Of a stretch of DNA of 32,482 nt, positions 11,055-32,481 are shown in pieces; the first letter of the stretch is position 1; every line of letters begins with the position of its first letter. The position numbers and the translations under genes are program-made. This DNA comes from a virus. Taxonomy: Duplodnaviria; Caudoviricetes. The stretch covers positions 1 through 32,482 of the IMG/VR virus record IMGVR_UViG_3300025035_000070; one strand, given 5' to 3'. The notes beneath the pieces were generated by a model. That model did no database searches, had not been told where the DNA came from, and saw only the letters and a program-made list of their open reading frames with translations.

Positions 11055-11472
11055 GGCCCCGGCTTGTGTTGGTGCGCAGCGGCGTTGCGCTCGCGCCGCC
11101 GCTGCGCGACGCTGGCGCGCCCGTCATGACGCGGGCGGCGGCGCAGGGGGCGGGCGATGGTGGCGGCGGCGGTGATCGCGATGGCGCTGGCGGCGCGGCT
11201 GGCGGCGCGACGGTGGCGCGGCCCAGCGCCGGGGCGGGCGGCGCTTTGGGCGGCGCTTGGCGGCGGTGGCATGGTCGCGCTGATGCTCCCCGCCGAACCG
11301 GGGGCGGCGGCGGCGGCGGCGCGCGCGATCATGGCCGCACTGGGCGGCGGCGCGGCGGCGATCTTCGCGGCGTGGTCCACGCCCTCGGCGCGGCGCTGAT
11401 CGTTAGCGCAGGCTGGGCGGCGCTGGCCGTCATGTGCTGGCACGCGGTGGAAATGGTGCGGGAATGGGTTTT

Positions 11473-11772
11473 ATGATTAATTGCGAATATAACAGTGTTT
11501 TTATTGTTCCTAATACTTCTGGAACAAAAGCAATAGAATTTGAAATAGGCAGCACAGAGTATTCAATCTTGGATATTCTAGCATGGCGCATAGAAATTAA
11601 GAAAAACGGTAATGCAAGTTTCTCCCCTCTTGTTGTCGGAATTTTCGATGGAATTGATCCGCAAGGTCTGATGCACGCATCTGGAATTATAGAGACAATG
11701 GATAATTTTTTTTCAAACACCTCTGAATTTGAGGCATTCCTTCGCCTTGCATCATCGGGGAAAAAATCATGA
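11473..11772 (+). CDS. Hypothetical protein in the AT-rich insert
   Basis: Open frame in AT-rich DNA, coupled by ATGA at both ends. Confidence 0.7.
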   Translation: MINCEYNSVFIVPNTSGTKAIEFEIGSTEYSILDILAWRIEIKKNGNASFSPLVVGIFDGIDPQGLMHASGIIETMDNFFSNTSEFEAFLRLASSGKKS

Positions 11773-12635
11773 CACCTAACGCAATCGATGTTCTCAAGCG
11801 CAGCAACGGCCCCCTGCGCGACATGCTTTTGCAAGCGCAATATTTTTCTATTTCAGAACGGTTATATAATGACTGTTTTTCGATTATGAGAGATAAGCAT
11901 AAGCGGTTTTATGAGGAAAGCAGCAACGAACAATTTAGCTTTCCTTTGCCGAGTAAAACCACAGTCATTAGCTATTCTCAGTATTTCGACATACTTATAA
12001 TAGATAATTATTCTGCAAGTATTGATATTTTAGTGATTAGAAACGGGTCTATACATCATATATGGAACTCAGAAAACGTAAACATAAACCATAAACTTAA
12101 AATTGATCAAACAGAAAGTGATTTTCTTGCTGCTATTTTTCAGCAGCTACTTATGATTGAGATTATTCTAAATGCGATTGCGGAGCCGCGCTTGATAGCA
12201 AAGCGCCCGCCATGTCGGCAATTCAGGAAAAACGTGCAACGCGCGATAGGCGCCGCGCCGCTTCCTGCATGGAGTTTCATTAGCTGGAGCGTCGGCGACA
12301 CGACGCATCCGAAGCAGGATGATGGTAGTGATACTTGGCGGGCACCGCTGCACTTCTCGCGCGCGCACTGGCGGCGGGCGAAGGGGACAGAACCAAGCGC
12401 AAGGCCGCGCGACGGCAAAAAGGGGCTTTGGATATGGGTTGCAAGCTCATGGAAAGGGCACCCGGATTTCGGTATAAAGCTCCATCACTATATCCCGCGC
12501 GCCAAGGGCGAAGCGTTCAACGCCGCACGATTGCCCGACCGACCAGCGGCTGGCCTTGAAATCTCAGACGCCGCAGCGAGCTGCGCAGTCCGCGCATGGC
12601 GGGCGCAGCGCGCCGCGCGCGGGTTGCTGTCATGA
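11769..12635 (+). CDS. Hypothetical phage protein with a C-terminal 'H..RAHWRR...W' motif
   Basis: 288-aa ORF with an AT-rich 5' half and GC-richer 3' half; LHFSRAHWRR...WIWV..WKG. Confidence 0.75.
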   Translation: MTPNAIDVLKRSNGPLRDMLLQAQYFSISERLYNDCFSIMRDKHKRFYEESSNEQFSFPLPSKTTVISYSQYFDILIIDNYSASIDILVIRNGSIHHIWNSENVNINHKLKIDQTESDFLAAIFQQLLMIEIILNAIAEPRLIAKRPPCRQFRKNVQRAIGAAPLPAWSFISWSVGDTTHPKQDDGSDTWRAPLHFSRAHWRRAKGTEPSARPRDGKKGLWIWVASSWKGHPDFGIKLHHYIPRAKGEAFNAARLPDRPAAGLEISDAAASCAVRAWRAQRAARGLLS

Positions 12636-12711: not shown

Positions 12712-13407
12712 CTAAAGCGCCACCTTCGCCAGCCATTCCGCCAGATGCGCCAGCGTCGGCCCCGCCCCATAGCGGGGCCGCGCCAGCTTGTGGCCCATCA
12801 AGTGCGCTTGCAGCCGCTCGGGAACCTCGGCGGCGATCATCCGATCTTGAAACGAATGGCGCAGCGAATAGGCGGTGTGTTTAGGCGTCGGCTTGAGGCC
12901 GTTTTCGCGCAGAAACTTGTTGACCACCGCCGACAGCGCGTCGGGCGCGGCGCCATAGCGCGGGAACCCGCCCGCCTGCGCCCGCCTGCGCGCCGCCTCC
13001 AGGCTCACGCCCAGCAGCGGAATGGCGCGGCCCCGGTGGCCGGTCTTCAGGCGGCGGCCCGCGTGCGCCTCGATCACGATATGCGGCGTGACGGCGCTGG
13101 CGGCGATATCCTCGGGGCGCGCGCCGCTCACCTCGGCCAGCCCCGCGCCGGTATTGATCATGATCAGGAACACGTCGCGCGCCTCGGCGTTCAGGCCGTC
13201 CAGCGCGCCCGGCGCAAGGATCTTGGCGCGCAGCCATTCGGTGGAGAATGAAGGCCGCTGCGCCTGCCCTTGCTCGCGCAGGCGCAGGCCCGCAAACGGG
13301 TTCGCCAGCTCCAGCGCGCGCAGCTCGGCGACGGTGCGGAACACGTCTGAAAGGGGAATTAAGGCGCGGCGGCGGGGCGTGTCTGTTGCGCGCCAAGTAT
13401 ATGCCAT
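12712..13407 (-). pseudogene. int: Tyrosine integrase catalytic domain, N-terminally truncated
   Basis: LKT, YSLRHSF, LMGH and RYG motifs are present, but NTGAGLAE lacks the first catalytic Arg. The frame is bounded upstream by a terminator, giving about 230 aa. Confidence 0.75.
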
Positions 13408-13447
13408 AAAACAGAAAACGCCCGCCCCGACTGAACGGGGCGGGCGT
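13408..13447 (-). terminator. Rho-independent terminator ending the late operon
   Basis: 12-bp perfect stem (13418-13447) with a 6-nt loop, followed by TTTCTGTTTT on the minus strand. Confidence 0.85.
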
Positions 13448-13479
13448 GGTATGTAGAACAAAACGTAGCACTTATTCGA

Positions 13480-13532: not shown

Positions 13533-13809
13533 CACGGCGCAGCCGCGCGCGGCGGGCGCGGCATTCTATGGCCTCCAGCACGGCGGCGGCGATGGCGCGC
13601 ACCATCAACACCACCACGGTTAGCAGGGCGATGGCGTGCGGCGGCGTCACGAACCATGCGCCGTTCGCGGTGCTGATAGTTAATAGGTGCACGTCGAACA
13701 GTGAAACGGCGGTTTGCATGGCGGCGGGCGCGGGCGTGCGCAGGTATTCCACCGATATCGTGGCCAGCGGGATGCCGCCCAGCGCCCAATCGGTGCGCCC
13801 GAACATCAT
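13486..13809 (-). CDS. Membrane protein, holin-like
   Basis: Hydrophobic helix AIALLTVVVLMVRAIAAAVL followed by an Arg-rich tail; Met-Met start; last late gene. Confidence 0.5.
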   Translation of the reverse strand: MMFGRTDWALGGIPLATISVEYLRTPAPAAMQTAVSLFDVHLLTISTANGAWFVTPPHAIALLTVVVLMVRAIAAAVLEAIECRARRARLRRVTERLERRLAHDRAP

Positions 13810-14333
13810 GGATACCCGGCCCCCTCGAACGCCGATTGCAGCTCCAGCGCGCCGCCGCCGTGATAGATGGCGAGCTGCGCGACGGCGTGCGCGGCCAGGA
13901 ACCGCTCCAGATCGATGTTGCCGCCCATGGTTTCGGCGTAAAGCCGGGCGAAGGCGCGGGCGACGCGCTCGGGGTCCGTCTCGCACAAGGCGGCCACGTC
14001 ATTGTCGGAAAGCGGCGCGGCGGGCGGCGGCGCAAGCTCGGCGTCGCCGATGCCCAGCCCAAGGCCCGGCCACATCATCCCCGCCGCCGCGTCGGCGGCG
14101 CGCTGGCGGGCAACCTCGGCGGCCAGCGTCAGCAGCCGCCCCGCGTGATCGGGGCCGAGGCGCAGCGCGGCCAGGCTCACAAGAAACGCCATGGGCGGGG
14201 GCAGGGCGTCGCACCCCGCCGCCGTCCATGCGGCGCGGGCCTCCTCGGGCGTCACGCCATCGTCGCCCGCCTCCAAAGGCGTCGCCCACGCCTGCGCAAA
14301 CGCCAGCGCAGCGTCGAATGTCGAATGGTGCAT
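13806..14333 (-). CDS. Degenerate glycoside hydrolase family 108-like protein at the endolysin position
   Basis: FDAALAF...EEA..W.AAGCDALPP...AA...GP..AGRLL resembles GH108, but no EGG motif is present. GAGGA RBS. Confidence 0.55.
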   Translation of the reverse strand: MHHSTFDAALAFAQAWATPLEAGDDGVTPEEARAAWTAAGCDALPPPMAFLVSLAALRLGPDHAGRLLTLAAEVARQRAADAAAGMMWPGLGLGIGDAELAPPPAAPLSDNDVAALCETDPERVARAFARLYAETMGGNIDLERFLAAHAVAQLAIYHGGGALELQSAFEGAGYP

Positions 14334-14772: not shown

Positions 14773-15483
14773 TCACGGCATGGCGGGCGGCGTGGCCGCG
14801 ATGTAGTGCACCGCCACACGCACCGCGCCGCCGGTGAACGCGCCGCCCTGCGCGGTCAGCACCACGGGGGCGGGGGCGTAATAGGCCAGCGGGCCGATCA
14901 CGCCAACGTTATTCGATCCAGCGGCCACGCCCAGCGATGCGCCGAACCGATCGATCACCACGCCGTCGCCAACCTGATATCCGGTCGCGCCGGTGATCGT
15001 CTCACTGGTGCGCGTGCTGACGGCCACCACCACGGCGCGCTCAGGAATAAGGCCCGCCAGCGTGACGCTTGCGCCGCTCAGATCGACGGCGACGGCCTCG
15101 GCGACGGCGAAGCCGAACGCCGCGCCGCCCGCCCGGCCAACAGCCGCGCCGCGCAGCCACCCATGGGCGGCGATGAAAACCGCGTCGCGGCCTTCGTCAA
15201 GGATGAACGCCCGCGCGCCGTCCGGCGGCGTGAAAAACGCCCACGCGGCCAGATGACGGCGCGCCAGCTTGCCGCCATGCCCGGCCCAAGCGCCGGTCGC
15301 GGCGGCGGGCACGGCGTAAAGCGCCAGCTCGGGCGGGTCCGGCGGCGGGTCCGTAAGGCTGGCCGAGGCCAGCACCGCCCCCGGCGCGCCAGCGCCGATC
15401 ACGTCAAGCGCGCGGTTGAACGTCGCCTCTGGGCTGGCCGGGTTGCTGGCCATGGGCGTGAAGCCCCATGCTTCAATGGTCAT
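14773..15483 (-). CDS. DUF2793 protein (RcGTA head-spike fibre Rcc01080-like)
   Basis: TFNRALD..., LTDPPPDP, GAWAGH.G.LA, WAF.TP..G, and C-terminal IP.RAVV...ITGAT...FTGGAVRVAVH. Confidence 0.8.
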   Translation of the reverse strand: MTIEAWGFTPMASNPASPEATFNRALDVIGAGAPGAVLASASLTDPPPDPPELALYAVPAAATGAWAGHGGKLARRHLAAWAFFTPPDGARAFILDEGRDAVFIAAHGWLRGAAVGRAGGAAFGFAVAEAVAVDLSGASVTLAGLIPERAVVVAVSTRTSETITGATGYQVGDGVVIDRFGASLGVAAGSNNVGVIGPLAYYAPAPVVLTAQGGAFTGGAVRVAVHYIAATPPAMP

Positions 15484-15697: not shown

Positions 15698-18600
15698 TCA
15701 CACCGTTACCACGGCGCGCGCCCAGCCGCCGGGGCCGAACGTCGCCGAAATCTGCGCCACCTCCACCATGAAGGACGCGCCCAGCGCATCGGCGGCGCGA
15801 TCCGCCGCCGGATAGGTCCAGGCCGGGGCCGTAGCCTCGGCCTCGCGCACCGCCGCGCCGCCGCCTTCGGGGCGGATGCGCACCAGGTATCGCTCGGCCT
15901 CCTCGGCCAGCGGCGGCGTGCGCCACGGCTGGCCCGGCTCACGCGAACGGCGCAGCCACGCCACCAGCGCACCGCCGTCAGGCTGCGCCTCGGCGCGCAC
16001 GGCATAGGGCGCGAAGGGCCGCAGCCCCACGCCCTGAAAGGCGTGCACGCGCTCCACCGCCAGATCGCCCGCCACGTCCGCGCCCACCGGGGCGGATCGC
16101 CACCACCACGCGCGGCCAATGTCCGCCGCCGTCATGGCGGGTTGCGCCACCGAAAGGCCAAGCGCCACCACGCGGGCGCCCGCGTCCGCGCCAAGCGCCG
16201 CCGCCGCCTCGGTTCCAAGTCGCCCGCGCAGCAGTTGGCGCAGCGTCCAGGTGCGCGGGCCGGTCAGCTCGGCGCGGGCGAATTGCAGCACTTCCCACAC
16301 GCCCGGCGCGGCCTCCACCGCCAGCGCGTTCGCCCCGGCCAGAACGTCCGCCTCGGTCGCGGTCAGCAGCTCGCCCGCGAACAGGCGCACCACCGCCGGG
16401 CCGGGCGTCCAGCGATCCGCCGGGGCGGCGGCCAGCGGCGCGTCCAGGCGGCCCAGCGGCGTGCGCGCGCCCAGCGTCAGGCGCGGGGCGTATGGCCCCG
16501 ATTGCTCGGGGGCGCGCCACACCGTCACGCCCAGCCACGGCTCGGCGTGCGCGGCGACATAGCCCGCCGCCGGGTCCGCCGCAGCGGAAAGCCGGGGCAG
16601 GTCCATGAACGCCACCAACGGCGGCGCGGCGGCGGCGTTGACCACGCGCACAGGCGGGCGATCCGGCCCCGTCAGGCCGCCGCGCAAGGCCACCTGATCG
16701 AAGCTGCGCGCCGTCACCTTGCGCGCCGCGCCGCGCGTGACGCTTTCCACCATGAAGGCGCGCGGGCGCTGGCCGGGGGCGGTGAACAGAAAAGGCCGCC
16801 CGGCCTCCAGATCGGCCCAGCTCGGCGGCGCGGTGAACTCCAGCCCTTCGCGGCTTTCGGTCACGTCGCGCAGCCATGCGCCTGCGATGGCGTCGGCGCG
16901 CTCAAGGTCCATGCCCAGGCCCAGCGACGCCTCGGCCAAGCCGTCCTCGGCGCCACTCTGGATCGTCGCGCGCGCCGCGCCGGTTTGCCAGTCCGCGCCG
17001 CTGTCAACAAACCTTATCACGGCTTCGCGCGGCGGGTCTTGAATGCTGGAGCGCGTCAACGTGTAGGGGCTGGCGTCGCCCGCCTCCACAAGATCGCCAG
17101 GCGTGACCGCGCCCCATGCTGGCGCGGCGGCGCGCGACTGAAACGCCAACTTGCCGAACGTCTCGAAGGCGTCCACGCGCAACGCGGCTTCCCATGGCGT
17201 CAGGAACTCGCGAAAGCTCATGGCGCGATCCGTCGCCACGCCGTCCACCTGCCCATGCGCCAGCGCAAGCTCCAGATCGGCGGGCGACACGCCATCGCGC
17301 GCCAGCCATGCGCGCAGCGTCTCGGCCAGCGGCGCGCGGCCAAGCCGCACCCAATGGCCTGCGCGATAGGCGGAATAATCCGCCCACAATGCGGCCCGGT
17401 CTGGATATTCCGGCCACGGTCGCGTGTCCGCCGTCCATACCGCCGTGCGCGCCGTGTCGATCATGCGCCCGCCATAGACGGCGGAAATCGGGTTGTGCGC
17501 CGGGTCTTCCCAATAGCCCAGCTTGGCCTCCAGAAAACGCCGTTGCATGAAATCATCGCGCCGCCCGTCGCTGAAATACGGCGCTGCGCTTTCCGACGAT
17601 TTATCGTCAATGAAGACGTTCGGCTGGTTGGCGCCCTTGTCCACCGCGGGGCAGCCGACCTCGGTGAACCAGATCGGTTTCGACTGCGGAACCCATGCGG
17701 TGGCGGCGGCGTCGCGCACCCCGCCGGGGCGGTTGTGGTGCGGGTTGCTCCACCAGGCGCGAATATCCTTGTATCGGAAAACCCACGGCTCGGCGTGCGC
17801 GCCATCGGTGATCGGCGTTCGCGCCTGCGCGGCGCGATCCGCCGCGCTCGCATAGAACCACTCGAAGCCCTCGCCACCCTCGACATTGCCGCGCAGGTAA
17901 TCCAGCGAATGGATCGAACCCGCCGCCGCGTCCAGATGCTCCACGCCGTCGCGCCAGTCGGCCAACGGCATGTAATCGTCTATGCCGACGAAATCGATGT
18001 TTTCATCAGCCCAAAGCGGGTCAAGATGAAAGAACACGTCGCCGGAACCGTCGCCCGGCTGATGGCCGAAATACTCGCTCCAATCCGCCGCATAGCCGAT
18101 CTTTACGCCGGGGCCGAGGATGGCGCGCACCTCAGCCGCCAGCGCCCGCAGCCGCGCCACTGTCACATAAGCGCCGCCGCCGTCGCGCAACCACGTCAGG
18201 CCGCGCAGCTCGGAACCGATGCAGAAACCAGCCGCGCCGCCCGCCTGCGCCGCCAGCCGCGCCATGTGCAGAATGAAGCGGCGATACCCATTTGGCCGGT
18301 TGAAAAATGCCTCTACGTCCGCAGCGGCGGCGGCGGTTCCGTCGCCGGTGGAGGTGATCCGCCCGCGCCACGCAAACGCAGCCTGTTCCGGCGCGCCGTA
18401 GGGGTCTGGCAAGCCGTTGCCCGGCGCCACGTCCATTTGAATGAACGGATACCAGATCACGCCGAGGCCCTTGGCCTGAAGCGCGGCGGCGCCCTCCAGA
18501 ATGGCGGCGTCCGCCGGGGTCGATCCGAACGCGGGCCGCCCGTCCACCAGCGAAACCGCCTGCGCCGCGCCGCGTGTGACGCCATCGACAACCCACGACA

Positions 18601-19519
18601 ATGGCGACGTTTTCTTGTCGATGATCTCCACTTTCGGCAGAATTTCGCATTCGCCCGCGCGCAAATCGGTTCCAAACCACGTCAGCACCAGCGTTGCGGT
18701 TTCCAGGTTCTCGCACAGCTCGGTTATCTGGCGCGCCGCCACAGTGAAATCGGTTTCCGCCTCGGAACGGTTGCTGTTCTCGACGGTGGCGCGCACCACG
18801 TCGCCGCTGGCGTCCACCACCTCTTGACGAATGGGCGTGGTGGCCAGCCCCCATTCGTTGCCCGGAATAAGCGTAAGCCCCCTTATCATCGGCTCCATGT
18901 CGCCGACAGGATTGCACACCTCGACATGCACATTCGGCCAGCGGTCGCCATAGGGGCCGAGGGGCAGGCGCTCCACCATCATCAGCGCCACATCGCGATA
19001 AGCGGGCGTCGCGCCGATGCCCTCAAGCGCCTCAATGCACGCATCGGGCATTTGCGCAACGTCGCCGCGATAGAACCGCACGCCATGCTTTGCGGCGTCG
19101 AAGGGGCGCGCATCCGCCCACACACGACCGAAATGCAGGCGCGGGCCGCCTTCGCACAAGGCGAACAGGGCGTTGCCGAAATAGCTGAAGCTGGTGGCTT
19201 CTGCGCGCGGCGCTGGCGCGCCCTTGCCGCCGCTGCGCTGCGTGGTGGCGACTTCCTCCAGCGGCGTGCGCCATATCATCTTTGCGGGCAGGCGCGCCCA
19301 ACCCGCCACCCATGGCAAATGTGCGCCCTCGGCGGGCAACGCCACGTCCAGCGACGAAAGGCGCGGCCCTTGCACGCGCTGGACGGGGCCGGGAAACAAC
19401 GCGGCGTCGATCATGCCGCCAACGGCGTTTCCGATGGCGCCGCCGACAGCCGCGCCAATCGGCCCGCCGATGGCCGCGCCTGCGACGTTGCCGCCCACGG
19501 TCAACAGCAGTTGCGCCAT
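15698..19519 (-). CDS. RcGTA g15-like baseplate 'megatron' (GTA TIM-barrel / host-specificity protein)
   Basis: 1273 aa; GPRL, WFGTDLRAGEC, FCIGSELRGLT, YAADWSEYFGH, FHLDPLWAD..IDFVGID.YMPL.DWRDG, KPIWFTE.GCPAVDKGANQPNVF. Confidence 0.95.
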   Translation of the reverse strand: MAQLLLTVGGNVAGAAIGGPIGAAVGGAIGNAVGGMIDAALFPGPVQRVQGPRLSSLDVALPAEGAHLPWVAGWARLPAKMIWRTPLEEVATTQRSGGKGAPAPRAEATSFSYFGNALFALCEGGPRLHFGRVWADARPFDAAKHGVRFYRGDVAQMPDACIEALEGIGATPAYRDVALMMVERLPLGPYGDRWPNVHVEVCNPVGDMEPMIRGLTLIPGNEWGLATTPIRQEVVDASGDVVRATVENSNRSEAETDFTVAARQITELCENLETATLVLTWFGTDLRAGECEILPKVEIIDKKTSPLSWVVDGVTRGAAQAVSLVDGRPAFGSTPADAAILEGAAALQAKGLGVIWYPFIQMDVAPGNGLPDPYGAPEQAAFAWRGRITSTGDGTAAAAADVEAFFNRPNGYRRFILHMARLAAQAGGAAGFCIGSELRGLTWLRDGGGAYVTVARLRALAAEVRAILGPGVKIGYAADWSEYFGHQPGDGSGDVFFHLDPLWADENIDFVGIDDYMPLADWRDGVEHLDAAAGSIHSLDYLRGNVEGGEGFEWFYASAADRAAQARTPITDGAHAEPWVFRYKDIRAWWSNPHHNRPGGVRDAAATAWVPQSKPIWFTEVGCPAVDKGANQPNVFIDDKSSESAAPYFSDGRRDDFMQRRFLEAKLGYWEDPAHNPISAVYGGRMIDTARTAVWTADTRPWPEYPDRAALWADYSAYRAGHWVRLGRAPLAETLRAWLARDGVSPADLELALAHGQVDGVATDRAMSFREFLTPWEAALRVDAFETFGKLAFQSRAAAPAWGAVTPGDLVEAGDASPYTLTRSSIQDPPREAVIRFVDSGADWQTGAARATIQSGAEDGLAEASLGLGMDLERADAIAGAWLRDVTESREGLEFTAPPSWADLEAGRPFLFTAPGQRPRAFMVESVTRGAARKVTARSFDQVALRGGLTGPDRPPVRVVNAAAAPPLVAFMDLPRLSAAADPAAGYVAAHAEPWLGVTVWRAPEQSGPYAPRLTLGARTPLGRLDAPLAAAPADRWTPGPAVVRLFAGELLTATEADVLAGANALAVEAAPGVWEVLQFARAELTGPRTWTLRQLLRGRLGTEAAAALGADAGARVVALGLSVAQPAMTAADIGRAWWWRSAPVGADVAGDLAVERVHAFQGVGLRPFAPYAVRAEAQPDGGALVAWLRRSREPGQPWRTPPLAEEAERYLVRIRPEGGGAAVREAEATAPAWTYPAADRAADALGASFMVEVAQISATFGPGGWARAVVTV

Positions 19520-19957: not shown

Positions 19958-20160
19958 TTGTCGCGCGCAGGGGCCTGGGCGGGCATGTCGGCGCAATGCC
20001 GCCAGCCGAGGGAAAGCGGCGGCGCGGCGTCGCGCGGATCACCTTGCGGGCGCATGGTGCGGATTTCCGCCAGCAGCGCCTCCAGCAGCCCGATGGCGTG
20101 GGCCGCGCGGTCATGATCCGTGATCGGTCTGTTGTCGATCATGGCGGGGCGTCTCCTCAT
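19954..20160 (-). CDS. Small hypothetical protein
   Basis: Fills the gap between DUF2163 and NlpC/P60, with 4-nt overlaps at both ends. Confidence 0.45.
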   Translation of the reverse strand: MRRRPAMIDNRPITDHDRAAHAIGLLEALLAEIRTMRPQGDPRDAAPPLSLGWRHCADMPAQAPARDK

Positions 20161-21029
20161 GATTGATCGCTGGCCACCGCATAGGCCAGCGCGGCGTCTT
20201 CGCGCGGCATATGCGGAAATCCGCGAAAGTTGATGACATTGGCGAAGCGGTCGCGACAGGTCGCTAGGCTCTTGTCACAGCCGGCCACGATGGCGAAGGC
20301 GTCGCCCGGCTGCGGCGTCTCATGCGGCGGGCGCCAAAGCTCGACCAATGCCGCCGCGCCGCTGGCGCGATGCGCGCGCACGTCCGCCCGCGCGTCGCCT
20401 GCGCCCGCGTTCGCGCCGGTGGTCCATGTCAGCACGCCGCGCGCAAACAGGCCCGCCGCGAACGCGCCGAGGCCGCTGGCGGTGATCGTGCGCCCGTCGC
20501 CGGAAACCGACGCCACCACGCCCGCGCCGGTGAACGGCGCAAGCGCCACGCCGCAGCGCGCATCGCCCAGCTCGGCGTCGCACGTCGCCAGCAGATGGCG
20601 GCCCCGCTTGCGGGTCAGCAGCGCCGCGCGGCTGCGCAGCTCGGCGGTGAAGCCGAGGCCGCCGCGCGACACTTCGCCGAGGTGATAGACGCCAACCAGC
20701 GCGCGCACCTCGGGGGCCGCCCAATTCACATCGAACACGCGCACCTCGGCGGCGTCATAGCGGCCCGCCGCCAGATCGGCCTCAGTGATCGCAGCGGATG
20801 AAAGCGCACCCGCAATGTCCAGATCGTCGGCGCCAAGGCCCAGCGCCTGCGCCGCCTCGGATGCGCCCAGGCCCTGCGCGGCGCGATAGGTCACGCCGTC
20901 GAACACGATATCGGCATCATGATCGGTGAAGCCGAACACCACGCCGTCACGCCGCTCCAGCCGCCAGCACGTCGCGCGCGTCGTGTCGCCGGTGGCAAGA
21001 TGCGCCAACCACGGGGCAGGGGCGCTCAT
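20157..21029 (-). CDS. DUF2163/BR0599 baseplate hub protein (RcGTA g13-like)
   Basis: CWRLERRDG..FGFTDHD, CDAELGDARC and AGCDK...CRDRF.N..NFRGFPH. Confidence 0.93.
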   Translation of the reverse strand: MSAPAPWLAHLATGDTTRATCWRLERRDGVVFGFTDHDADIVFDGVTYRAAQGLGASEAAQALGLGADDLDIAGALSSAAITEADLAAGRYDAAEVRVFDVNWAAPEVRALVGVYHLGEVSRGGLGFTAELRSRAALLTRKRGRHLLATCDAELGDARCGVALAPFTGAGVVASVSGDGRTITASGLGAFAAGLFARGVLTWTTGANAGAGDARADVRAHRASGAAALVELWRPPHETPQPGDAFAIVAGCDKSLATCRDRFANVINFRGFPHMPREDAALAYAVASDQS

Positions 21030-21090
21030 GGCGCCACCCGTGGCGCGGCGTCCAGCTCGGCGGCGCGATCCTCGGCGAGCGCGCGCGCCA

Positions 21091-21366
21091 TCAGTAAAGC
21101 GCCAGAATGTTGGTTGCGGTGGTCCCGGTGGCCAGAACGCGCAGCACACGCAGGGGATGATACTGCGCCGCGCCGCTGATCACCACCGATGCGTTGCCGA
21201 ACCGATCGATAATCGACACTGCGCCCTCCACGCCCACATACAGCGCGCGCGTCACTCCCATGGGAAGGTCGGCTACATCGTTCGGCGTGATCGCAATTAT
21301 TTCCTCTCCGGAGCCATTTCCCCGCAAGATGATGTTTTGTTCGCGCTTTTCTTCTGGCGTCGCCAT
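21091..21366 (-). CDS. Rcc01079-like head-spike base protein
   Basis: AITPNDVADLP..TRALYVG..G.V...PLRV.RVLATGTTAT.I.ALY; AAGGA RBS. Confidence 0.8.
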   Translation of the reverse strand: MATPEEKREQNIILRGNGSGEEIIAITPNDVADLPMGVTRALYVGVEGAVSIIDRFGNASVVISGAAQYHPLRVLRVLATGTTATNILALY

Positions 21367-21380
21367 CGTAATTTCCTTTG

Positions 21381-22334
21381 TTAATACAAAGCGAGAATGC
21401 CGGTTGCGGTTGTTCCGGTGGCCAGCACGCGGCGGATGCGCAGAGGGTGATACTGGTTGTCGCCGCTCACCAGCTCGCGCGCTTGGCCGAGGTGATCGTG
21501 AAACATCACCACCCCGGCGCCGGTGACATAGAAGCTGCGCGCAGGCCCTTGGGGAAGGTCCGCCGCGTCGGATGGCGTGACCGGCTCCACACGCCCAGCC
21601 GGGCCGCTGGTTTCCGCCGAGGCCGCCACAATCGCCGACTGTATCGCCGCTGTAAGGTCCGCCATATCGGCGGTGATCGTGCTCATGGCGTTCAAATCCT
21701 CAATCAGCGGAACGTCCGCGATTTCACCCAGCGCGCGGCCCGTCTCCGTGTCAAACATCGCCGCGTCGATCAGCAGCGTATCGGTGTCGAACCGAGCTGG
21801 CGCATCGAACGCGAACCCGGCTGAAAGCGCGGCGCCGGGGGCGGGCGCGGCGTCGAACGTCACCACGCCGTTTGTGGGGTTCACGCTCCAGCCGCCGCCG
21901 ATCTCGACGCCATCAACAGCGATGCGCACCGTTTCGGCCACCGGCTTGATGATTGATCGGCGCCATGTGCGGAACCCCGCCACACCGTAGCGTTTGCCAA
22001 GCTGAAACTGCGTCGCCGCGCCGTCGCCGTCGCCAAGCCACTGATCAAGCGCCGTCGGCGTTTTTTGCGGCTGGCACGATTTCCAGTCAGTCCAATCGCG
22101 CACGCGAAACCCGTGCATCCGCCCGGCGGCCATCTCGAAGAAATCCAGCACCGCGTGCAACTGATCCAGGCGGCGCACACCATAGGCCGCATTCCACGCG
22201 CGCCGCGATCCCGCCCAGCGCTGGTTGCGCTCCTCACGCCCGGAGGCCAGCGCAATAACCTCCGTGCGCCGCTGCGGCCCGCCGCTGAAGCCCAGCGACA
22301 CGTCCACCGGCAATCGCACCTCAAAGAACGCCAT
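21381..22334 (-). CDS. DUF2460 distal tail protein (RcGTA g12-like) fused to an Rcc01079-like domain
   Basis: GGP.RRTEV..LASGREERN.RW, GFR.RDW.D, FQL.KRY and AGF.FD.PARFDTD, then a C-terminal VTPSDAADLP...RVLATGTTATGILALY. Confidence 0.9.
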   Translation of the reverse strand: MAFFEVRLPVDVSLGFSGGPQRRTEVIALASGREERNQRWAGSRRAWNAAYGVRRLDQLHAVLDFFEMAAGRMHGFRVRDWTDWKSCQPQKTPTALDQWLGDGDGAATQFQLGKRYGVAGFRTWRRSIIKPVAETVRIAVDGVEIGGGWSVNPTNGVVTFDAAPAPGAALSAGFAFDAPARFDTDTLLIDAAMFDTETGRALGEIADVPLIEDLNAMSTITADMADLTAAIQSAIVAASAETSGPAGRVEPVTPSDAADLPQGPARSFYVTGAGVVMFHDHLGQARELVSGDNQYHPLRIRRVLATGTTATGILALY

Positions 22335-22346
22335 GGGCCGCCCCGA

Positions 22347-24161
22347 TCATGTGTTGCGCCCGCCGCGCCCCACGGCGCGCGCCAGCGTGGCGGCGACTTG
22401 GCCGCGCGACGCATGGAACGCCTCGGGGCTGGGCGTGCTGATGGTGACATTCACCACCGGCGCGCGCGCCCCGTCGCCTCGGGGCGTCACCGTCACGCGC
22501 TCGCCTTGCGTCGCCATGAACTGCACAAGATTGCGGTCGATCCCGCCGCGCCCGCCCACGGTGAAATCGGCGCCCTCGTTGAACTGCGGCAACTTGAACG
22601 CGCTGGCGCTGGCGGGCGTGAACCCGGCGGGGGCGTTGGTGACGCCACCGCTAAAGAACGAACTCGCGGCCCCGGCCAGCGCGCTGGCGGCGCTCGATGC
22701 AAGCGCGCTGATCCCCGCGCTGGCGAAGGAACCCGCCACATTCGCGCCGATGCTCAGCGCGCTGCGGCCCAGCGTCTTTAGGCTGAAATCGCCGGTGCGC
22801 ACCATATCGTCAAAGGTGCTGGCCACTTGCGCGCCAAGATCATCGAACACGCCAGCGATGGTTTGCGCGGTATCCGTCGCGCTCGGGATGGCGCCGCTGG
22901 CCAGCCGGTCGAACTCGCCCAGCACGCCGTCCACCAGATCGGGCACGCTGGAATTTCCGACAACCTGAATATACAGCCAGTCGAACGCCTCGGCGATCTT
23001 GCCCACGGTCTTGTCAACATAGCCTAGCACGCGATCAAAGCCGCTGGTGATCACGCGCCACACTTGCGCGGCCATGTCGGAAACCGACGCCACCACGTCC
23101 GCCGCGAAACCATTTATCGCCTCCAGCACCTGCGCAACGCCGTCGCGCACCGCTTCATAGGCGGCGGTTATCTGCGGCCAGAACGCCACCAGCCCCGCCG
23201 CCAGCGCCGCCACGCCAGCCGCTGCGGCGACAAACGCGGCGGGCAAGGCGGCCAGCCCAAGCGCCAGCAAGCCCAGCACGCCAAGAACTGGGCCGATGGC
23301 GGCGGCGATGGCGGCCCCGGCCACGATGAACCGGCGCATGGGTTCCGGCATTTCCTGAAGCGCTGCGATCACGCCACGCAGGCCCGCGATGATCGGGGGC
23401 AGGAAATCGGCGATGATCGCGCCGAACTGTTCCTGAAGATCGCCCCACGCATTGCCAAGCGCGGTCAACTGGCCCGTCAGGGTCTGCGCGCTGGTGGCGG
23501 CCTGCCCGCCGTAGAACTGCGCGATTTCGTCCAGGATAAGCCCTTGCGCCTCGGCGACGCGCCCCGTCTCCACCAGGCTTTTGATCACGCTCTTTTGCTG
23601 TTCGCTGAACTGGATACCCGCTTTGCCCAGCGCCGAAATCCCCTTGACAGGATCGTTCAAGGATTTGCCTAGCTGGATCGTCTGGCCTTTAAGGTCGCTA
23701 CCCAGCACCGCCGACAGATCAAGCGCCGCAATCTGCGCACGCTTGAAAATATCGCGCGAGACGTTGCCGAACGTCAGAAGCTGCGCCGTCACGTCCGCCA
23801 GTATCTTTTCATCGCCGACGGCGCTCAATTCCTGAAGCGCCGACGCCTCTTTGAAAAGCTGTTCGGCGCTGAACCCCGCCGCCGCGCCGGTCTGGCGGAT
23901 CGCCTGCGCAACTTGCGCCTCGGCCTTTTCCTGTATCTGATACAGGCCGACCATGTTGCGCGCCGCCAGCGCAAGCGGCGCGGTGACAGCCGCCGACAGG
24001 CCCGCGCCGATATTGCGCATGGATTTGCCCGCACTGTTGATGCGGTCGCGCAACGTGCGCGCCGCGCCCTCGACGCCTTGCATGTTCTTGCGCACGGCGG
24101 CGAAGGCCGAGGCGGTATCATCCTTCGCGCCGATACGAAAGAACAGATCGCGCACGCTCAT
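22347..24161 (-). CDS. Tail tape measure protein
   Basis: 604 aa, Ala-rich and helical; QLGKSLNDP..G..AL...GI.F and VGNS.VPDLV; follows the chaperones. Confidence 0.92.
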   Translation of the reverse strand: MSVRDLFFRIGAKDDTASAFAAVRKNMQGVEGAARTLRDRINSAGKSMRNIGAGLSAAVTAPLALAARNMVGLYQIQEKAEAQVAQAIRQTGAAAGFSAEQLFKEASALQELSAVGDEKILADVTAQLLTFGNVSRDIFKRAQIAALDLSAVLGSDLKGQTIQLGKSLNDPVKGISALGKAGIQFSEQQKSVIKSLVETGRVAEAQGLILDEIAQFYGGQAATSAQTLTGQLTALGNAWGDLQEQFGAIIADFLPPIIAGLRGVIAALQEMPEPMRRFIVAGAAIAAAIGPVLGVLGLLALGLAALPAAFVAAAAGVAALAAGLVAFWPQITAAYEAVRDGVAQVLEAINGFAADVVASVSDMAAQVWRVITSGFDRVLGYVDKTVGKIAEAFDWLYIQVVGNSSVPDLVDGVLGEFDRLASGAIPSATDTAQTIAGVFDDLGAQVASTFDDMVRTGDFSLKTLGRSALSIGANVAGSFASAGISALASSAASALAGAASSFFSGGVTNAPAGFTPASASAFKLPQFNEGADFTVGGRGGIDRNLVQFMATQGERVTVTPRGDGARAPVVNVTISTPSPEAFHASRGQVAATLARAVGRGGRNT

Positions 24162-32467: not shown

Positions 32468-32481
32468 GTCGCGAATTACCT
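32468..32481. repeat. Right copy of terminal direct repeat (candidate cos)
   Basis: Identical to 1..14 and directly upstream of the small terminase gene on the minus strand. Confidence 0.85.

Follow-up and report, generated by a model that had tools for sequence, protein, structure and literature searches.

A distal tail protein gene continuous with a head spike-base domain in one siphophage population

The late operon and its fused gene

The window analysed here, a 32,482-nucleotide stretch of viral DNA (Caudoviricetes), carries a late operon on its minus strand that runs from terS, terL, portal, protease-capsid, head closure, tail tube and tape measure to the distal tail protein (Dit), hub, NlpC/P60, megatron and DUF2793 protein. 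Judged by these genes, it is a siphophage genome with a lambda-type head and an RcGTA-type tail. Bases 1-14 of the window recur as a direct repeat at 32468-32481, immediately upstream of terS, and the closest other phage found, L082 (record G001), is continuous across the sequence corresponding to the window's ends. This 14-nt terminal repeat fits a filled-in 5' cos overhang, which suggests that the contig derives from packaged linear genomes, and the genome is apparently complete, the contig having been opened at what would be a cos-like site; the putative cos assignment follows from the position and from lambda biology. The Dit gene lies between those for the tape measure and the hub, with a two-gene insert before the hub. 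The features of the region and of the tail fibre are as follows, X22 being a sister strain.

22347..24161, minus strand: tape measure protein, upstream of Dit
21381..22334, minus strand: fused open reading frame of 317 aa, Dit (1-216) and spike base A with an N-terminal extension (217-317); from the reading frame, profiles and a model
21687..22334, minus strand: distal tail part of 216 aa (DUF2460/TIGR02217, Rcc01695 family), with the same EDLNA end as L082; from profiles and Foldseek
21683..21701, minus strand: junction, GAGGA (21701-21697) and then GCC-ATG, where relatives read GCA-TGA, one base fewer
21612..21695, minus strand: segment in the helix region after Dit, pLDDT 54-75 in the model; from the model and alignment
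21381..21686, minus strand: spike base A, 101 aa from an internal ATG, with a predicted jelly-roll at fusion residues 239-317; from NF048002 and Foldseek
21491..21681, minus strand: two 10-nt direct repeats (21681-21672 and 21500-21491), the 181 bp between which are absent in X22, breaking spike base A
21030..21686, minus strand: cassette of 657 bp between Dit and hub, with two spike-base genes, absent from the collinear G001/L082
21091..21366, minus strand: spike base B, a free paralogue of 91 aa with its own ribosome-binding site; NF048002 67.8 bits against a cut-off of 28
21026..21091, minus strand: mini-ORF of 21 codons sharing bases with the stop codon of spike base B and with the start of the hub, open under the listed X22 changes
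20157..21029, minus strand: baseplate hub (PF09931 and PF09356), by profile match
15698..19519, minus strand: megatron (GTA_TIM, Phage-tail_3, Rcc01698_C), the expected partner of the DUF2793 fibre
14773..15483, minus strand: DUF2793 baseplate tail fibre of the R4C/Rcc00171 type, matching 8gtc_S with E=2.5e-39

The fusion of Dit and spike base A is present in the DNA. The original prediction, made from the letters alone, held that the DUF2460 frame runs on without its usual stop, through a helical linker of about 30 residues, into a homologue of the RcGTA spike base Rcc01079, and our analysis bears it out on each point. A single frame of 317 aa is open from 22334 to 21381. DUF2460 (PF09343) covers its residues 5-212 at 244.4 bits (cut-off 30.4), and TIGR02217 scores 216.2 bits on the fused ORF (cut-off 136.65). 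Residues 239-317 are the spike base, with NF048002 scores of 65.7 bits in the fusion and 68.9 for A alone, against a cut-off of 28; phmmer aligns this part to 6tb9_E3 (E=7.6e-6), and a profile of the fused ORF's relatives matches 6tb9_E3 (E=8.8e-19) and the Carin1 spike base (2.7e-9). An alignment-based AlphaFold2 model of the fusion has a mean pLDDT of 91.8 and two confident domains; a single-sequence prediction reached a pLDDT of only 31.5. In the model the linker (214-241) is helical at lower confidence, pLDDT being 54-75 in ten-residue blocks over 201-250, and its geometry is uncertain, the model having been built on a mixed alignment with misplaced ends. With this model as query, Foldseek returned three matches at E<=0.001, namely 8gtc_G, 6tb9_A1 and 8cjz_h. 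The predicted Dit part aligns to 8gtc_G with E=2.4e-16 (TM 0.83 by target), and the predicted model of spike base A (the fold search covered A, not B) superposes on 6tb9_A1 with an rmsd of 2.0 A over 73 columns (TM 0.76 by target). The domain matches 6tb9 by sequence, profile and predicted fold. In Pfam, NCBIfam and Foldseek the appended domain matched the spike-base family only, with no match to a carbohydrate-binding module of evolved Dits, and an ESM Atlas query with the fusion returned DUF2460 clusters only. Exact look-ups of free spike base A and of the 216-aa Dit found no match, and there were no RNA data sets among the listed runs holding the phage.

The next gene, at 21091-21366, is a free paralogue, as had been proposed: spike base B shares 53% of its residues with the fused domain across 75 aa, both copies carry QYHPLR, and their C-termini read as originally given. 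In a quick tree (89 columns; the careful search was unfinished) A and B fall in one QYHP subfamily (SH-aLRT 94) and are not resolved as sisters. Third-position GC is 0.755 in A and 0.696 in B, compared with 0.79-0.86 in 12 other genes. A possible internal start had also been pointed out, and it is there: GAGGA at 21701-21697 stands 10 nt before an in-frame ATG at 21686. The GAGGA duplex has a calculated energy of -6.0 kcal/mol with the anti-Shine-Dalgarno motif. With ribosome-binding site and ATG both kept, it is plausible from the sequence that free and tethered spike base are made from one gene.

When one A and four B chains were modelled together, the predicted complex scored 0.78 against 0.00 for the best control, although a similar complex has been solved and the score may reflect likeness to, or memory of, the Rcc01079 pentamer. 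Of 157 solved complexes, 116 came up to the score mark, as did 2 of 215 mismatched pairs, counts that hold only roughly for the 1A:4B prediction. Runs of this prediction agreed in at least 70% of contacts with a partner pLDDT of at least 80, and the predicted interface comprises residues 28-100 of A, leaving the linker free and outside it.

Elsewhere in the genome, an integrase remnant of 249 aa (12712-13461, minus strand) scores 22.9 bits against a Pfam cut-off of 27.1, and Gly occupies its putative first catalytic Arg position; no homologue was found in the examined parts of G001. Two plus-strand ORFs of 112 and 288 aa (11434-12635) adjoin the remnant on the opposite strand, are unlike the remaining genome in sequence and look like acquired accessory genes. 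At the lysis position, an ORF of 175 aa (13806-14333, minus strand) had no good match in Pfam, PHROG or NCBIfam and no usable one in the ESM Atlas; by eye, we take it to be like a GH108-type lysin without the catalytic motif. An internal ATG pair in this ORF (14078/14075) would give a 90-aa product with an N-terminal Gly-Leu repeat like those of head fibres, a likeness that is probably due to chance.

The junction in sister strains and in the closest relative

The late genes of L082 are collinear with those of the window at 69-76% nucleotide identity, and its Dit is 65% identical. That Dit ends EDLNA-stop, with the TGA overlapping the hub ATG; the Glu-Asp codons contain a GAGGA positioned to serve as ribosome-binding site of the hub. 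In a pairwise alignment of the window with L082, a single-base gap falls at the last codon of Dit and is followed by the 657 bp that L082 is without; no spike base was found in the L082 record, which is 86% complete. The Dit genes of L082 and X22 both end in GCA-TGA, the stop overlapping the next ATG, and the window has one extra base there, giving GCC-ATG. A 10-nt repeat flanking the cassette was considered as a target-site duplication and rejected, as four copies occur on that strand.

We searched for this junction in sequencing runs listed as holding the phage, at least half of whose words were found in 20 of the 24 listed runs, 5 of these being possible sources of the window. Eight of the 24, none marked as a possible source, were examined as assembled contigs rather than raw reads. 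The junction was bridged in frame and without a gap in contigs of seven of the eight (X6, X7, X8, X9, X10, X21 and X23, the last at a depth of only 2). Most of the examined runs are from groundwater or aquifers in 2017 and may come from one campaign. All four members of the fusion's 90% protein cluster, drawn from JGI, Logan and ENA assemblies, are fused, and three of the members differ from the window's protein. It is true that the difference is a single base and that contigs rather than raw reads were compared, yet the bridged junction in seven non-source runs and the composition of the protein cluster make it exceedingly improbable that the fusion arose in the assembly or sequencing of this contig.

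The remaining run, X22, holds the sole unfused strain, in one 6,211-nt contig at depth 11.8 that differs from the window at 46 positions over about 1,410 aligned nt. Its contig skips 21501-21687, with five letters between. By its sequence, the skip reads as a stop-bearing junction with the start of spike base A, followed by a 181-bp deletion between the 10-nt repeats: the cassette start is present, the Dit stop is kept and 181 bp of spike base A are lost. The free copy A is dispensable in X22, since spike base A is broken there. Spike base B is intact, with five synonymous and two non-synonymous changes (from the 38 of the 46 differences that were used). At the 3' end of Dit (21729-21822), 16 listed differences between X22 and the window are densely packed, and there are few elsewhere.

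The fused strains X6 and X7 differ at 5-10 sites in 1.6 kb and each has its own blocks in common with X22, a pattern that suggests recombination among these strains; X22 may have its stop through recombination rather than straight descent. Two codons, GCC and GAC, occur at the junction in fused strains, with GAC in X6. All X6 changes but one are shared with X22, and the exception falls in this codon, a coincidence of 3/1601 (about 0.2%) as computed after the fact; GAC could have come from a single later substitution or from another, separate insertion. In the examined fused strains spike base A has no inactivating change. The changes in A number two synonymous and one non-synonymous, too small a count to bear on neutrality. 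The sole unfused strain is the one with copy A deleted; the fused strains retain it intact.

Dit ends, spike bases and fibres elsewhere

To place the fusion among its relatives we surveyed 136 Dit loci, 12 of which were dropped since the C-terminus was not reached. The stop falls within 10 residues of E212 in 122 of the other 124, and the two fused ones are the window's own phage. At 78 of 100 distinct unfused Dit junctions the stop lies in an ATGA, GTGA or TTGA context, and such a -4 overlap is the commonest gene coupling in prokaryotes according to PMC10666635. Among 149 Dit representatives (the best 150 of 4,929 matches, from 1.84 billion proteins with one per 50% cluster) none carried a spike base, and 42 had a C-terminal extension of at least 40 aa.

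In 22 Dits of 313-332 aa (P0262, P0264, P0269, P0277, P0282, P0309 and 16 more) we observed a shared C-terminal beta domain of about 110 aa, which had no NCBIfam name in the two proteins tested. As a candidate spike base this extension was rejected (best hmmsearch E=0.058; profile-profile probability 1.2%). The family is a decorated Dit, much more widespread than the fusion studied here. The window's fused protein belongs with P0213, P0264, P0309 and others in Dit family and in extension point, theirs often being about 110 aa long, but their extensions do not match the spike base.

From the other side, 69 of 74 longer spike-base proteins have the spike base at their C-terminus. None of the 74 had a Dit match, a weak result in that the word-index search (8,000 candidates scored) missed the window's own fusion; the blank of another word-index search is equally weak, as it returned none of these long proteins. 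Among 117 named phage records matching the fused protein, none covers 80% of it. In 802 genomes of two alphaproteobacterial orders, 214 with a spike base, there were six open frames of at least 280 aa among the matches listed, none of them a Dit fusion; 27 further matches of that scan lie outside the listed set. A tblastn search of named phages with spike base A gave no match, which is uninformative given that such genes are reported in print. We found no description of a Dit-spike-base fusion in the literature covered, most subscription papers being outside it. The fusion was found in this one population only, and both of its parts are known families.

A free spike-base gene occurs in the tail region of 16 of 134 other Dit loci, some of them duplicates, and stands directly after NlpC/P60 in 14 (L099, L109, L111, L133, L142, L145, L172, L174, L175, L187, L188, L193, L210 and L214). 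In several of these GTA-like loci a conserved 141-aa gene comes next and then, where seen, a multi-kb gap before the megatron. In L160 (15069-15287), L222 and L223 the tail cluster closes with the DUF2793 fibre and, directly after it, the spike base; in L160 a 425-aa gene with a head-fibre-like N-terminus comes next. L070 has three spike-base genes, and P0015, P0016 and P0052 each have two spike-base domains in one chain.

Residues 1-212 of the fusion match the Dits of RcGTA (Rcc01695) and R4C (PDB 6tba, 8gtc) both in sequence (E=7.5e-53 and 2.7e-47) and in predicted fold, and the gene order TMP-Dit-hub-NlpC/P60-megatron-fibre is the same; the window's Dit differs from theirs in having no stop after E212, 101 more residues and two extra genes before the hub. 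Both spike bases resemble Rcc01079 (NF048002; PDB 6tb9) in scoring above the family cut-off, a pentamer is predicted for them too, though possibly through likeness to the solved one, and the model of A is as close to the Carin1 spike base (PDB 8cjz chain h, named from the database title) as to 6tb9, with an rmsd of 2.0 A. Unlike Rcc01079, one copy stands behind Dit, both lie between Dit and hub, and no Rcc01080-type fibre was recognised. The N-terminal arm by which Rcc01079 is anchored to axial domains of the capsid has a cation-binding Glu12; spike base A keeps the S/G-P-A segment of this arm with Ser at the Glu12 position, and the arm of B has diverged, with Asn there by ungapped extension. 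The evolved Dits of Gram-positive siphophages also bear an extra beta-rich module on a tail-tip Dit; theirs are widespread carbohydrate-binding modules inserted in loops, with host binding shown (PMC7291167). In the window, by contrast, a capsid-vertex domain without a known ligand stands at the C-terminus of Dit in one population. The fusion resembles a decorated Dit, yet it is outside the evolved-Dit class, whose modules bind carbohydrate.

The DUF2793 gene lies where the original prediction had placed it, but its equation with the RcGTA head fibre Rcc01080 was wrong. DUF2793 belongs to Rcc00171, a likely tailspike, and not to Rcc01080 (PMC5026251), and the R4C fibre that the ORF matches has a rod that binds the megatron (PMC10276861). 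On these grounds a head fibre of the Rcc01080 kind is ruled out for ORF 14773-15483, which by sequence is a baseplate tail fibre. The same evidence tells against the suggestion that a spike-base socket displays DUF2793 fibres at both ends of the virion. In its favour, the tethered domain is truly homologous to Rcc01079, its operon includes a DUF2793 gene and three other loci have the two genes side by side; yet L082 has the fibre (78% identical to the window's) with no spike base found in its incomplete record, and with the family and megatron evidence added we regard such a socket as very improbable.

In RcGTA the Ile/Leu-Gly repeat at residues 2-10 of Rcc01080 is held in the Rcc01079 pentamer (PMC7296036). 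No Rcc01080-type gene with an alternating hydrophobic N-terminus was recognised in the window by a search that could miss a divergent fibre. A loose version of the fibre motif fitted 22 start codons in the window, none of which begins a partner gene downstream; the one that looks fibre-like sits within ORF 13806-14333. Of 95 related places, 28 had a gene after the spike base that was positive in a near-identical motif test, one of these being false by eye. The absence of a fibre neighbour is not itself a sign of decay, because most related spike bases are also without one.

Origin and possible effects of the fusion

The frame, the domain identities, the one-base difference and the absence of the cassette from the relative are direct results, and from them we infer a direction and order of events together with the expression, incorporation and neutrality of the product. 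The distribution of Dit ends suggests that the stop is ancestral and the fusion derived, and the fusion looks recent from its sequence. A 657-bp cassette with two spike-base genes would have entered the Dit-hub junction and taken over the ribosome-binding site built into the last codons of Dit; a one-base insertion would then have turned GCA-TGA into GCC-ATG, erasing the Dit stop at the ATGA overlap. Each of six Dit subunits would carry a helix of roughly 28 residues and a jelly-roll domain, free spike base A would likely still be made from the internal ATG, its GAGGA and ATG being kept, and head vertices would be capped by pentamers of free B, and probably of free A, with no recognised fibre on them.

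That one inserted base erased the Dit stop at a stop/start overlap, and that the added domain is a tolerated, near-neutral passenger on the tail tip, is what we consider probable, with some reserve. In favour of tolerance, extensions of DUF2460 proteins are common and the spike base is C-terminal in nearly all of the longer proteins examined that contain it. The end of L082 without the cassette, the stop kept in X22, the usual Dit stop near E212 and the lack of a second fusion in the searches speak for a passenger; the fused state across strains, the two junction alleles, the absence of inactivating changes in A and the predicted 1A:4B complex speak against it, as does the fact that X22 is one contig with dense changes at the 3' end of Dit. 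It is unlikely, in our judgement, that a head-vertex protein was redeployed to the tail tip by a one-base insertion, possibly twice, and kept by selection. In such a case tethered A would recruit free A or B into pentamers, up to six of them mixed and ringing the tip, as an adhesion or decoration module without the DUF2793 fibre. The in-frame junction in most runs, the mosaic strains and the loss of A in the unfused strain alone are in keeping with selection, the GCC and GAC alleles could be two independent insertions and hence argue for it, both domains fold in the model, the 1A:4B score far exceeds its controls (with the reservation about memory of the solved pentamer), and decorated Dits are functional in other siphophages (PMC7291167). 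Set against this, the searches run found no second lineage with the fusion, there is no known ligand or fibre and no head-fibre gene was recognised in the window, six monomers on a six-fold ring mismatch a pentamer unless free subunits join, a one-base change is explicable without selection, and most runs possibly belong to one sampling campaign. A selected fusion would let one see a decorated Dit just as it arises, its ancestral, fused and decayed alleles still side by side; at the most speculative, tail-tip pentamers could dock on the head vertices of other virions, linking particles tail to head.

The fusion might instead be mildly harmful or bypassed, the extension disturbing the joint between Dit and baseplate, with an unextended Dit supplied by frameshift or linker cleavage, or with the phage a partly defective element; this we hold to be quite improbable. 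Arg209 at the C-terminus of the RcGTA Dit contacts hub and megatron (PMC7296036), the X22 Dit is unfused, a +1 shift at the junction meets TGA at once when read from the sequence, and the sub-cut-off integrase remnant and the lysin-position ORF without a family match are possible signs of decay. Nevertheless, C-terminal extensions of DUF2460 proteins are frequent among the representatives, inspection of the junction by eye gave no canonical slippery heptamer, and the phage, whose contig ends are cos-like, is present in many runs.

What is new here is the combination of Dit and spike base, whereas both families and coupling by stop/start overlap are known, and an easy annotation error is corrected in that DUF2793 marks a baseplate fibre. 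As an event in one population without a known ligand, the fusion opens no long-standing question by itself. If it is indeed a tolerated passenger, it is a natural example of domain gain in phage structural proteins with the before and after states in sister strains, in which coupling became fusion through one base after an accessory gene had entered a stop/start overlap. Were the tethered domain functional, a five-fold head module would work on a six-fold tail ring, and the C-terminus of DUF2460 would suggest itself as a display site. On the far side of the cassette, the mini-ORF at 21026..21091 may be a bridge that kept hub translation coupled after the insertion, or a gene remnant.
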